DNA of 64,000 bases from Myxococcota bacterium (GTDB taxonomy: Bacteria; Myxococcota_A; UBA9160; SMWR01), in NCBI GenBank assembly GCA_036336695.1, contig JAYZFQ010000014.1:3585-67584 (forward strand), given 5' to 3'. Shown in pieces: positions 58,716-62,145 of the stretch; the stretch's first letter is position 1, and each line of letters begins with the position of its first letter. A program made the position numbers and the translations under genes. Under the pieces are notes generated by a model that saw only the letters and a program-made list of their open reading frames with translations, was not told the DNA's origin and did no database searches.

Positions 58716-59924
58716 ATGGCAGACTTCCCCGAGCCGGGGGTGAGCGCAGCCGAGCTGTTGCGGCTGATCCAACGGGATCGCCCCGCCGCGGAGCAGCGTG
58801 TGGCATCCCTCGCACCGGAGGAACAGGTCGCGCTCATTTGCGCAACGCCGGTCCGCCGCAGGCGAGAGCTTCTCGACCTGGTGCCGGCACCGGAGCGCGT
58901 CATCGCACTGCTTCCCGAAGCCGAACTCTGCTTTACCGTGAAGGCCGTCGGCCTCGAGAGCGCGACCTGGATCCTCGAGTACGCCACCCCCGAACAGGTC
59001 GCCACTGCCATCGACCTCGACGCCTGGACGGAGCACGCACTCGTGGCGCCCAAGCTGGACGCCTGGCTGGACGCGCTGGCCGAAGGCGACGACGAGTCTC
59101 TCTTGAGATCGCTCGGAAAGGTCGACAGCGAGCTGCTGGTTCTCTGGCTTCGTGGCCGCATCGCCGTCTTCCAGAAGCCGAACGACGACGAGGGGTGGTC
59201 TCCGCCCGACGGCAGCCGCACCCTGGAGGGCCAGTTCCACTTCGTGCCGCTGGGCGAGGACGACGACGCCGCGACGATCCTGCGCTTTCTCCAGGTGCTC
59301 TTCCACACGGACTACTGGACCTACTTCCGCCTCATGCAGGGCGTCATCCACGAACTCCCGACGGAAGCGGAAGAGTGGGCCCTGCGCTGGCGCAACGCGC
59401 GACTCCAGGATCTGGGCTTCCCGACGTGGGAGCACGCGATGCGGCTCTACCGGCACCTCCGCCCCGAAGAACGGGCCGCGCTGCCCCAGGAGGGCGACCC
59501 GCTCGATATCGCCGCCTGGACTCTGCCGGTCTGGATTCCCGGGCTTCCCGATACCAGCGCGGAAGACCGCGCGGTGTTCCGCGCGATGGCGCGTCTCGGA
59601 GAAGACGAACGCCGCAGCGCCTTCTTCTCTTTCGTAGCGGTCGCCAATGAAGTCGCCGTGGCGGACCACATGGAACTGTCGGATTCCGAGACCACGCCGC
59701 GCGCCATCGAAAAGGCGGCACGATGGATCGATCGCGGACTCGTCTACGTCGCCGAAGAAAACCGCCTTTCACACGAGGAGGTGTTGCGCCGCGTTTCGTT
59801 GCAGCACCTCTTTCGTGTCGGCGCGAACCTGGACCCCGCGGCGGCGCGCCCGCCCCGAACTTCTCCGGACGACGGAACCCAGAACGACGAAGGGCCCGCC
59901 GGGGAAGCCGGCGGGCCCTCGTAG
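58716..59924 (+). CDS. Conserved-looking acidic hypothetical protein
   Basis: ATG 58716 (MADFPEPGV); 402 aa with coding-like third positions. I recognise no catalytic motif. Confidence 0.6.
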   Translation: MADFPEPGVSAAELLRLIQRDRPAAEQRVASLAPEEQVALICATPVRRRRELLDLVPAPERVIALLPEAELCFTVKAVGLESATWILEYATPEQVATAIDLDAWTEHALVAPKLDAWLDALAEGDDESLLRSLGKVDSELLVLWLRGRIAVFQKPNDDEGWSPPDGSRTLEGQFHFVPLGEDDDAATILRFLQVLFHTDYWTYFRLMQGVIHELPTEAEEWALRWRNARLQDLGFPTWEHAMRLYRHLRPEERAALPQEGDPLDIAAWTLPVWIPGLPDTSAEDRAVFRAMARLGEDERRSAFFSFVAVANEVAVADHMELSDSETTPRAIEKAARWIDRGLVYVAEENRLSHEEVLRRVSLQHLFRVGANLDPAAARPPRTSPDDGTQNDEGPAGEAGGPS

Positions 59925-59940
59925 TTGCAACCGGACCTCT

Positions 59941-60144
59941 CTAGAGGTCGACAGCCTTGAGCGTCTTGCGCTTGTTGCCGACGGCTCGCGCCTCGGCTTC
60001 CTTGATCAGCTCACGCACCGCCTTGTCGAGGGCGCCGTAGAACTCTCCACCGACGTTGCACTTCTTGACCGCCGCCTTCGTGCGGGCCTTCGAAATGATC
60101 AGGTCACCGCCGCCCTTTGCGGCCTTCTTGCGTCGCGCTGCCAT
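59941..60144 (-). CDS. Bacterial histone-fold protein (DUF1931 / singlet histone-like)
   Basis: ATG 60144 is preceded by GGGAGGAAAC. The 67-aa product is MAARRKKAAKGGGDLIISKARTKAAVKKCNVGGEFYGALDKAVRELIKEAEARAVGNKRKTLKAVDL. The segment AEARAVGNKRKTLKAVDL mirrors the archaeal histone alpha2-L2-alpha3 string LARHAGRKTIKAEDI. Confidence 0.7.
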   Translation of the reverse strand: MAARRKKAAKGGGDLIISKARTKAAVKKCNVGGEFYGALDKAVRELIKEAEARAVGNKRKTLKAVDL

Positions 60145-60253
60145 GTTTCCTCCCATCTACACCGCGTCATCGAACTCGCTCGTCACCGGAACGCACCGGC
60201 TAGAACCCAACTCGCTCGAATCGGACGCCACCGTCCGTCATCGCGAGGGCCGG

Positions 60254-60282
60254 ATCATAGGCACTTTGAAGAGAGGATCCAA
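60254..60282 (-). promoter_or_regulatory. Candidate sigma70-type promoter for the histone-fold gene
   Basis: The minus strand reads TTGGAT-17 nt-TATGAT in the most AT-rich stretch of the window, about 100 nt upstream of ATG 60144. Confidence 0.3.
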
Positions 60283-60332
60283 CGAAAAACTGCGCGAATC
60301 CGGCCCGAGGGGCCGTTTCCGAGGGGCCGGGG

Positions 60333-61118
60333 TCAGAGGCCCCCGGCCGAACGAAGCAGGCTGGGCAGCACCTCCTCGACGGGTCCGTCGAAGCGGAAGT
60401 CGGCCGCGCCGTCGAAAGGCGTCTCCGAGGCGGTGAGAATCGCAGTCCGGGCTCCGTGGGCCCTGGCGACGTCGAACATCCCGTTGATCGGCCCGACCAC
60501 GAGGGAAGTGCCCGCAGCGACGAAAAGATCGCAAGCGGCGGCGGCAACCATCGCCCGCTCGAGATCCTCGGCGACCAGTCCCTGGCCGAAGGAGATGGTC
60601 GCCGGCTTCCAAGGACCGCCGCAGGCGCACCGGGGCACCGCGACACCCGACTCCCAGAGTTCCTGAGCGACACCACGTGGTTCGCGCGCTCCGCAGTCCA
60701 GGCAGACCACCGCGGCATCGGTACCGTGGATGTTGACGAGCCGGTCGACGGGAAAGCCGCTGCGCTCGTGGAGGCCGTCCACGTTCTGACTGACGAGCAG
60801 ATCGAGTCGACCTGTCGCCGCAAACCCGACGAGTGCGTGGTGTGCCGGATTCGGCTCGGCACTTCGGATCAAGGGCCAGGTTTCGCCCTTGTAGCGCCAG
60901 TACTCCTCGCGGGCGGTTTCCCGCGCCAGGAAGTCCTGGATCGGAACGGGCTGGTAGGTTTCCCAGCGGCCGCCGGGAGAGCGGAAGTCGGGAATGCCCG
61001 AGGCCGTCGAGAGCCCGGCCCCGGTCAACGCCACCACCGAGCGGGCCTGCGACCAGGATCGGGCGAGCTGCTCCAGGTCCGACACGGCGCCAGGGTACAA
61101 TGCCCCCGTGGCACCCAT
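60333..61118 (-). CDS. Sir2-family NAD-dependent protein deacylase
   Basis: [24 protein letters not shown] and the zinc ribbon CLDCG...CACGG. The start is ATG 61118 or GTG 61085. Confidence 0.9.
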
Positions 61119-62145
61119 CGACCTGCGCAGCGACACCGTGACGCGCCCCACTGCGGCGATGCGCCAGGCGATGGCAGAAGCCGACGTCGGCGACGACGTG
61201 TACGGCGAAGACCCGACGGTCAACCGCCTCCAGGAAACCGCCGCCCGCCTCCTGGGCAAGGAGGCGGGCCTGTTCGTCCCTTCGGGAACCATGGGCAACC
61301 AGGCCTCGATCCATCCCTTCGTTCAACCGGGCGACGAGGTCCTCGCCGGGCAGGGCGCCCACCTCCTCCGCTACGAGTCCGGCGCTGCCGCGGCCCTGTC
61401 CAGCGTCCAGGTGGTCTCGATCGGCGCGGACGGAACCTTTGACGGCCAGGACGTGCGCGCCGCAATCCATCCCGACGAGGCCCACTACGCCCCGACACGG
61501 GTCGTCGCCGTCGAGAACACCCACAACGCCGCCGGCGGGCTGGTGTTTCCCTTCGACCAGCTTCGGGACGTCGTCGCGGCCGCCCAGGAACGGGGCTTGC
61601 ACCTCCACATGGACGGGGCGCGACTCTGGAACGCCGTGGTCGCAACCGGGACCCCCGCCGAACACTGGGCCGCCCCGTTCGATACCACCACGTTCTGCCT
61701 CTCCAAGGGCCTGGGCGCCCCGGTCGGCTCGGTGATCTGCGGCACTGCGGCGACCATCCGGCGCGTCCACCGCGCGCGAAAAATGCTAGGCGGCGGCATG
61801 CGCCAGGCCGGCATCCTCGCCGCAGCGGGGCTCCACGCCCTCGAGCACCATGTCGAGCGCCTCGCCGAGGACCACGCGAACGCGCGTCGCCTCGCCGCAG
61901 GGCTGAGCAAGCTGGGCTACCGCGTCGAGCGTGCGCCGGAAACCAACATCGTGCTGTTCGAAGTCGCCGACCCGGAGTCCTTCCTCGCGGCCACCCGGAC
62001 ACGGGATGTCTGGATCAACCCGATGGGGCGCAATCGCTTCCGGGCCGTGACCCATCTGGACGTTTCGGCGGAGGAAATCGACGACGCGTTGGAACGAATC
62101 GGCGAGGGCGTACCGGAGAGCCGGCGCGCCGCTACTCGTCGGTAA
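61108..62145 (+). CDS. ltaE: Low-specificity L-threonine aldolase
   Basis: [31 protein letters not shown] and [12 protein letters not shown] (PLP lysine). GTG 61108. Confidence 0.9.

Follow-up and report, generated by a model that had tools for sequence, protein, structure and literature searches.

To our knowledge, bacterial histones have been recognised only recently, and HBb and HLp are the only ones to have been characterised. HBb (Bd0055), from Bdellovibrio bacteriovorus, is highly expressed in its host (PMC11390915). HLp, from Leptospira perolatii, forms stable tetramers which wrap about 60 bp of DNA (PMC12701072). Here, we analysed a stretch of 64,000 nucleotides from a Myxococcota bacterium (contig JAYZFQ010000014.1, positions 3,585 to 67,584; the whole stretch is called the window below), in which a small gene lies directly downstream of a gene for a Sir2-family deacylase. 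An earlier reading of the same sequence, referred to as the original prediction, had proposed that the two encode a bacterial histone and the enzyme that controls its acetylation. Our analysis indicates that the small gene probably encodes a nucleoid-structuring histone of the face-to-face (FtF) class of alpha3-truncated histones, in an uncultured marine bacterium of the Myxococcota, and that the neighbouring Sir2 is of the ordinary CobB type, with nothing to suggest that the two genes form a dedicated pair.

The classification that we follow is that of Schwab et al. 2024 (PMC11390915). In alpha3-truncated histones, helix alpha3 is reduced to 3–4 residues and helix alpha2 is 4–5 residues shorter than in nucleosomal histones. 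The FtF class falls within this group and is defined by torus-shaped tetramers. Its profile conserves R48, N52, R54, T56 and D61, of which R48 and N52 provide the contacts between dimers and R54, T56 and D61 form the clamp of loop L2; in addition, an FtF arginine binds the C-terminal carboxylate. Histones of the ‘bacterial dimer’ type, such as HBb, do not have R48 and N52. Bacterial FtF histones are distributed mainly in Spirochaetota, Planctomycetota, Bdellovibrionota and Myxococcota and commonly carry basic N-terminal tails, and the existence of FtF histones in Myxococcota, often with such tails, is already reported in that study.

The gene under study, its ribosome-binding site and the organisation of its product are as follows:

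59941 to 60144, minus strand: histone gene, 67 amino acids (aa), defined from the open reading frame (ORF), comparison of starts, homology to solved histones, an AlphaFold2 (AF2) model, Foldseek and signature residues
60149 to 60154, minus strand: Shine-Dalgarno sequence GGGAGG, read from the sequence, 4 nt before the histone ATG at 60144
Residues of the 67-aa product: basic tail 1–13; alpha1 19–25; loop L1 26–32; alpha2 33–56; loop L2 57–63; alpha3 64–66

The ORF ends with the stop codon at 59941–59943. In its longest version, it comprises 71 aa and begins at an in-frame ATG at 60156, which overlaps the ribosome-binding site. The M at 60144 (67 aa, MAARRKK...) is kept in 30 out of 30 aligned homologues, all of which begin with MAA[RK], and gene calls made independently on metagenome contigs carrying an identical histone also give 67 aa. 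Most of 79 related histone loci have GGGAGG or GGAGG in this position. The N-terminal tail (MAARRKKAAKGGG...) is basic, and residues 1–13 are disordered in the AF2 model. What the original prediction had put forward for this gene, namely a 67-aa product with a basic N-terminal tail, a helix-loop-long helix-loop layout ending in GNKRKTLKAVDL and a strong ribosome-binding site, was borne out at the same place, the layout by both the sequence and the model. No second histone copy was found within the window.

Evidence for the histone fold came from profile searches and from structure comparison. Two profiles were used, A1 derived from close homologues (narrow) and A2 derived from 56 diverse members of the histone family. 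With the single sequence, the search against the Protein Data Bank (PDB) gave a weak match only, to HTkC of Thermococcus kodakarensis (9F2C, E 0.005). With A1, HTkC was matched at E 2.3e-5, and HTkC and HLp were the only proteins found. A2 matched HTkC at E 2.3e-17 (66.3 bits), HLp (9QT0) at E 2.2e-13 (53.5 bits) and HBb (8FVX, 8CMP) at E 1.9e-11 (47.3 bits), followed by weaker matches to a Methanococcales histone (8BDK, 8e-6), to HMfA (0.007) and to NF-YB (0.01), with H4 below. Using a diverse alignment, AF2 predicted the structure with a mean predicted local distance difference test score (pLDDT) of 83.9 overall and of more than 90 in the core. The model contains helices at residues 19–25, 33–56 (24 residues) and 64–66 (three residues), the chain ending at residue 67. 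When this model was compared with the PDB by Foldseek, the nine best matches were all HLp, HTkC or HBb chains, with a target template modelling (TM) score of 0.77–0.87 and an rmsd (root-mean-square deviation) of 1.1–1.4 Å in eight cases and 2.2 Å in one. All of the 50 matches listed were histone-fold proteins or complexes containing them (e.g. NF-Y, H4).

Several points weigh against this assignment and its refinement. The Pfam search with the 67-aa protein, for which the original prediction had named DUF1931 and CBFD_NFYB_HMF as the families to look for, returned no family at E up to 1; NCBIfam gave no meaningful match, and no precomputed Pfam domain was present among the 120 homologues listed. 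The first AF2 run, made with a shallow alignment (sequences more than 80% identical), reached a pLDDT of 61.5. At 4e-3, the E-values from Foldseek are modest, owing to the short length of the histone. Moreover, structure prediction was of the monomer only, and the FtF assignment therefore rests on the signature residues and on the sequence ranking described below. As to Pfam, its models are insensitive to this histone subfamily, and the missing match is no argument against the fold. Judged from the profiles and from the predicted structure, we regard the histone-fold assignment as secure. The presence of a singlet histone-fold gene in this bacterium, as originally proposed, thus stands on the profile matches (HTkC, HLp, HBb, HMfA) as well as on Foldseek.

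Both helices concerned by the truncation have the expected dimensions in the AF2 model, alpha3 covering residues 64–66 and alpha2 residues 33–56. The residues R53, N57, R59, T61 and D66 reproduce the FtF signature at exact spacing: R53 and N57 precede the clamp arginine R59 by 6 and 2 residues, the RxTxxxxD motif is present as R59, T61 and D66, and the chain stops one residue after D66. All five residues are invariant in A1. In A2, T61 and D66 are invariant and R53, N57 and R59 are at least 90% conserved.

These residues also bear on whether the protein could resemble HBb, i.e. bend DNA, or coat it end-on, as a stable dimer and not wrap it as a tetramer. The R53 and N57 counterparts in HBb are S and D (profile A2 alignment), whereas the two residues are nearly invariant in the family under study. 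Its chain ends directly after a conserved D-L, as it does where the FtF arginine binds the C-terminal carboxylate. The family profile is also closer to the FtF members than to the bacterial dimer, ranking HTkC (66 bits) and HLp (53.5 bits) over HBb (47 bits). Nevertheless, HBb remains a significant profile match (1.9e-11) and a near-equal structural one (target TM 0.77–0.81, rmsd 1.2–1.4 Å), monomer models cannot separate the dimer and FtF classes, and ‘bacterial dimer’ histones are among those that Schwab et al. give for Myxococcota_A. On balance, we consider an HBb-like dimer unlikely. By its sequence, the protein fits best among the FtF-type alpha3-truncated histones of Myxococcota, as a member with a tail.

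In HLp, DNA is contacted by K15, K17 and K21 of alpha1, T27 and G29 of L1, and K54, T56, T57 and R59 of L2 (PMC12701072). HMMER alignments place K15, K17, G29, K54, T57 and R59 of HLp opposite R21, K23, G33, K58, T61 and K63 of the window histone, and R21, K23, K58, T61 and K63 are invariant in the family (A1), G33 being the exception. From the homology with HLp and HTkC, a pair of monomers would be expected to form a dimer through antiparallel alpha2 helices, and two dimers would close into a torus-shaped tetramer by contacts between N57 and R59 and between R53 and the C-terminal carboxylate. Such a tetramer would wrap about 60 bp of DNA with no sequence preference. The contacts, by homology with HLp, would be made by R21 and K23 (alpha1), G33 (L1), and K58, T61 and K63 (L2), and the lysine/arginine-rich tail would add electrostatic affinity for DNA.

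The histone family comprises 1863 homologous protein clusters, some of them labelled ‘histone H3/H4’ by JGI, and is reduced to 292 representatives at 50% identity. The gene is carried by 247 GTDB species genomes, nearly all of which are metagenome-assembled genomes (MAGs) of uncultured Myxococcota, and the exact 67-aa histone is also found on TARA and other metagenome contigs. For the comparison of loci, we used 80 histone loci (L001–L080) from species-representative genomes, in which neighbours were located by tblastn with defined queries. Over these loci, the median identity of the histone is 85%, against 49% for DUF6178, 56% for NUDIX, 62% for threonine aldolase, 69% for Sir2 and 76% for IlvD. 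This level of identity indicates that the histone is under very strong purifying selection. Conservation extends to the tail, which always begins with MAA[RK][RK]KK, continues with a stretch of K, R, A and G, has a length of about 9–22 residues and ends in GG[DE]LIISK or KPAELIISK. The conserved first residues differ from the published remark that bacterial FtF tails are without conserved sequence.

The family also includes natural tandem doublets of 118–122 aa (P0177, P0181, P0201, P0202, P0206 and P0211). They consist of two complete alpha3-truncated folds, each ending with RKTxxxKD[LV], and are thus single-chain pseudodimers related to FtF-like singlets. One MAG, JAPUJU01, carries two histone gene copies on different contigs (L019, L026). 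For a few histone carriers, the label is Latescibacteria, Planctomycetota or Spirochaetales. Of the contigs labelled Spirochaetales, most have the synteny of Myxococcota, and this points to bins with wrong labels.

Upstream of the histone gene, two further features have to be considered:

60333 to 61118, minus strand: Sir2-family NAD-dependent deacylase (CobB type), the upstream neighbour of the histone gene, from Pfam SIR2 and motifs
60254 to 60282, minus strand: sigma-70-like promoter TTGGAT-17 nt-TATGAT with 8 of 12 consensus matches (-35 at 60277–60282, -10 at 60254–60259)

The Sir2 gene ends with the stop codon at 60333–60335 and starts at either ATG 61118 or GTG 61085; the GTG, giving 250 aa as called on contig L082, may be the true start. 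Gene calls on metagenome contigs give 250 and 234 aa. Pfam SIR2 (PF02146) is matched from position 1 to 180 out of 180 (E 1.1e-31), two NCBIfam deacylase models are matched with 192 and 189 bits, short of their equivalog cut-offs, and the translation shows the Rossmann GAG motif, the catalytic histidine (NIHG) and four zinc-binding cysteines (CxxC...CxC, read as CLDC...CAC). This is an ordinary CobB-type sirtuin. As the original prediction had it, the gene lies on the same strand as the histone gene and 188 nt upstream, the gap between the Sir2 stop and the histone ATG being 60145–60332.

The promoter is located within this gap, its -10 element ending 109 nt upstream of the histone ATG. In L028, the nearest relative, TTGGAA-17-TATGAT occupies the corresponding position, and the consensus in relatives is TTGACT-16-TATGAT, located 75–125 nt upstream of the start codon. 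At least 9 out of 12 consensus matches were obtained in 48% of 79 histone-upstream regions versus 2.5% of 800 random segments. In the window itself, a strict promoter/terminator scan gave 0 sites, the promoter at 60254–60282 being below its threshold. An AT-rich promoter-like region had been proposed here; the promoter part of this description is supported by the conserved TTGGAT-17-TATGAT, but AT-richness is modest only, with an intergenic GC content of 62.8% versus 68.4% for the window. No convincing terminator was found between the Sir2 and histone genes (fold z-score of 0.31; 0 sites in the scan), and some read-through is therefore possible, though the histone promoter lies in between. The histone promoter is kept even where Sir2 adjoins.

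Conservation of the Sir2 adjacency was judged in the 67 loci with an upstream flank of at least 3 kb, the flank being too short in the other 13. By tblastn, these loci are divided as follows:

4 loci (L003, L004, L028, L030): Sir2 orthologue directly adjacent to the histone gene
12 loci: Sir2 orthologue 1.1–3 kb upstream of the histone gene
51 loci: Sir2 not within the upstream flank (at least 3 kb)

Sir2 orthologues in the related loci are 64–76% identical to the window copy. In 11 of the 12 loci where Sir2 is not adjacent, an alpha/beta hydrolase gene and/or an amidase gene on the opposite strand stands between Sir2 and the histone gene, and co-transcription of the two is therefore impossible in these 11 distant cases. 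The commonest gene immediately upstream of the histone is a divergent alpha/beta hydrolase. On a tree of DUF6178, the protein encoded downstream of the histone gene, Sir2-holding loci are scattered over the upper half, with direct adjacency in three separate places, and one large clade is without them.

This distribution is difficult to reconcile with a dedicated module in which Sir2 would deacetylate the lysine-rich tail or body of the histone and tune its DNA binding, so that a bacterium would have histone chromatin under the control of acetylation. Sir2 is missing from the flanks of 51 of the 67 loci and directly adjacent in only 4, and opposite-strand genes intervene in nearly all the others. 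It is tied more tightly to a divergent threonine aldolase gene, with which it stands back-to-back in nearly all Sir2-holding loci, than to the histone gene. Moreover, a conserved histone promoter separates the two genes, no acetyltransferase is linked to the locus, and the reported neighbours of hlp in Leptospira are SMC, MAP and DUF350, with no Sir2 among them. CobB-type sirtuins in general act on many substrates. The idea of a module draws on the common strand and the 188-bp spacing in the window, on the K/R-rich tail with its conserved first residues MAA[RK][RK]KK, on the active-sirtuin motifs of Sir2 and on the precedents of CobB1-HupS and Alba-Sir2. Also in its favour, and against a fortuitous pairing, Sir2 lies within 3 kb upstream in 16 of the 67 loci, across several deep branches, and the direct adjacency arises in three separate places of the DUF6178 tree; this proximity could reflect a loose functional link. 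Taking these points together, we find a dedicated module decidedly unlikely, and the functional pair of the original prediction did not survive comparison with relatives. Equally in doubt is a more restricted version, in which the conserved basic tail is a reversibly acetylated, regulated module and the patchy Sir2 synteny is the remnant of an enzyme-substrate relationship; we hold it to be improbable, but if true, it would represent the first acetylation-tuned histone-fold chromatin in a bacterium. The pairing of histone and Sir2 genes is a lineage-specific accident of gene order and is not conserved. Sir2 may still deacetylate the histone as one of many substrates.

On its other side, the histone gene faces the following gene:

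58716 to 59924, plus strand: DUF6178 gene (Pfam DUF6178, E 1.6e-68; start approximate), convergent with the histone gene

DUF6178 is downstream of and convergent with the histone gene in 72 of the 80 loci and is its best-conserved neighbour. The two stop codons are 16 bp apart in the window, and the transcripts therefore probably overlap at their 3′ ends. Beyond DUF6178, NUDIX is present in 65 of the 80 loci and a DUF815 AAA ATPase in 51; the loci of more distant homologues L054 and L077 are without this DUF6178-NUDIX-DUF815 block. At the far end of Sir2, the L-threonine aldolase gene (Beta_elim_lyase) is on the plus strand and divergent from it, in the region 61085–61130: if Sir2 starts at GTG 61085, the starts of the two genes are about 22 bp apart, whereas with ATG 61118, the start taken in the original prediction, they overlap. 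The simplest reading of these arrangements is an ancestral block composed of aldolase, Sir2, (amidase), hydrolase, histone, DUF6178, NUDIX, (ACT) and DUF815, followed by repeated local losses. In the window lineage, loss of the genes in between (hydrolase) would have brought Sir2 next to the histone gene.

Constancy of DUF6178 in 72 of the 80 loci raises the question of a role outside chromatin, the small histone-fold protein serving either as a specific regulator or, in complex with DUF6178, as a subunit; many eukaryotic histone-fold proteins (NF-Y, TAFs) are indeed not chromatin packers. However, DUF6178 is convergent and not co-transcribed with the histone gene, and it is the whole downstream block that is syntenic. 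The residues that correspond to the DNA contacts of HLp are basic and invariant, and an abundant structural protein would be in keeping with the extreme conservation, the strong promoter and the strong ribosome-binding site. A non-chromatin role appears to us highly improbable. For the nucleoid-structuring FtF histone that we favour, conservation, the gene's own promoter and its strong ribosome-binding site, as read from the DNA, are what one expects where a core protein is highly expressed from a separate transcription unit, and by analogy the protein is probably abundant.

Between promoter and start codon, the transcript would begin with a leader:

60145 to 60253, minus strand: 5′ leader of about 100 nt, with hairpins GGACG-GTGG-CGTCC and GCCGG-TGCGTT-CCGG and a degenerate G-run TTGGGTT

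In related loci, a run of at least five G occurs 42–100 nt before the histone ATG in 40 of 79 leaders, versus 8% of random segments. This G-run is usually preceded by a small hairpin that is specific for the subclade (CGTG/CACG, CGTAC/GTACG, GGCGT/ACGCC or CCATG/CATGG) and is followed by a second hairpin ending just before the Shine-Dalgarno sequence. For one subclade, the structure given by RNAalifold joins the G-run to GCGCC at the 5′ end of the transcript, and double-sided changes are found in 7 of 17 predicted pairs. The window leader, a degenerate copy, showed no extra fold stability compared to shuffled sequences (z-score of 0.30), and Rfam gave nothing near gathering thresholds in the intergenic region. 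Across the loci, the 5′ leader seems both conserved and structured, and with its G-run and covarying hairpins it could constitute a new cis-regulatory RNA controlling histone dosage. In one subclade (L014, L016–L018, L031, L042, L051, L052, L058, L073 and L076), an invariant GCGCCAATCA(G/C)CGTG was observed directly downstream of the -10 hexamer. Situated where the transcript starts, this sequence resembles a CCAAT box and probably belongs to the 5′-terminal stem.

Myxococcota feature in discussions of eukaryogenesis, and a very conserved family of tailed FtF histones across uncultured members of this group would make a good third model. It could be used to test DNA wrapping by FtF histones outside Leptospira and the contribution of a conserved basic tail. 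The finding adds a member to the catalogue together with regulatory detail; it brings no new principle, as the claim of a histone-deacetylase pair fails the comparison with relatives.

Sirtuin control of prokaryotic chromatin proteins has precedents. In Streptomyces venezuelae, the CobB1 sirtuin controls acetylation of the lysine-rich HupS (PMC11229371), and PMC6456759 cites two further cases, the acetyltransferase Eis acetylating HupB in Mycobacterium and, in Sulfolobus, the pair formed by Alba and Sir2 (Bell et al. 2002). HupS-CobB1 and Alba-Sir2 are the functional analogues of what the original prediction proposed: in both, the DNA affinity of a lysine-rich chromatin protein of a prokaryote is raised by a deacetylase of the Sir2 family. 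The substrates differ, being HU-fold and Alba-fold and not histone-fold, and the link with the sirtuin is biochemical there, whereas here it consists of gene proximity, which is not conserved. The original prediction had considered acetylation-controlled bacterial chromatin as undescribed. With HupS-CobB1 known, this was too broad; for its histone-fold version, which our analysis does not support, the literature searched contained no report of acetylation, or of a link to Sir2, for any bacterial protein with a histone fold.

Among the histones themselves, HBb (8CMP, 8FVX, 9EZZ) is, like the window histone, a bacterial alpha3-truncated singlet with an RKTxxxD motif, and the two superpose with an rmsd of 1.2–1.4 Å. 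It differs as a dimer that bends DNA, without the tetramerisation residues, without a basic tail and with a short C-terminal extension. HTkC (9F2C, PMC11390915) is the best sequence match among solved structures (32–36% identity), and it shares the fold and the C-terminal signature, ending just after the conserved aspartate. In contrast to the window histone, HTkC is archaeal and tailless, has E instead of N at the position equivalent to N52 and coexists with nucleosomal histones.

The closest counterpart in structure is HLp (PDB 9QT0–9QT2, PMC12701072), from which the window histone is nevertheless distant, being about 28% identical and from another phylum. Its tail (MAARRKKAAKGGG) is longer and more basic, with a conserved start, and T56 of HLp is replaced by K60, giving the RKT motif of nucleosomal histones. 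The gene neighbourhoods differ as well, with SMC, MAP and DUF350 in Leptospira versus Sir2 or hydrolase plus DUF6178 here, and the tetramer and DNA wrapping that are known for HLp are predicted by homology for the window histone. Both are bacterial singlet alpha3-truncated histones with a short N-terminal extension, and they share the R...N-K-R-x-T....D signature and basic or polar residues at the DNA-contact positions, HLp being the best Foldseek match (TM 0.87, rmsd 1.1 Å).

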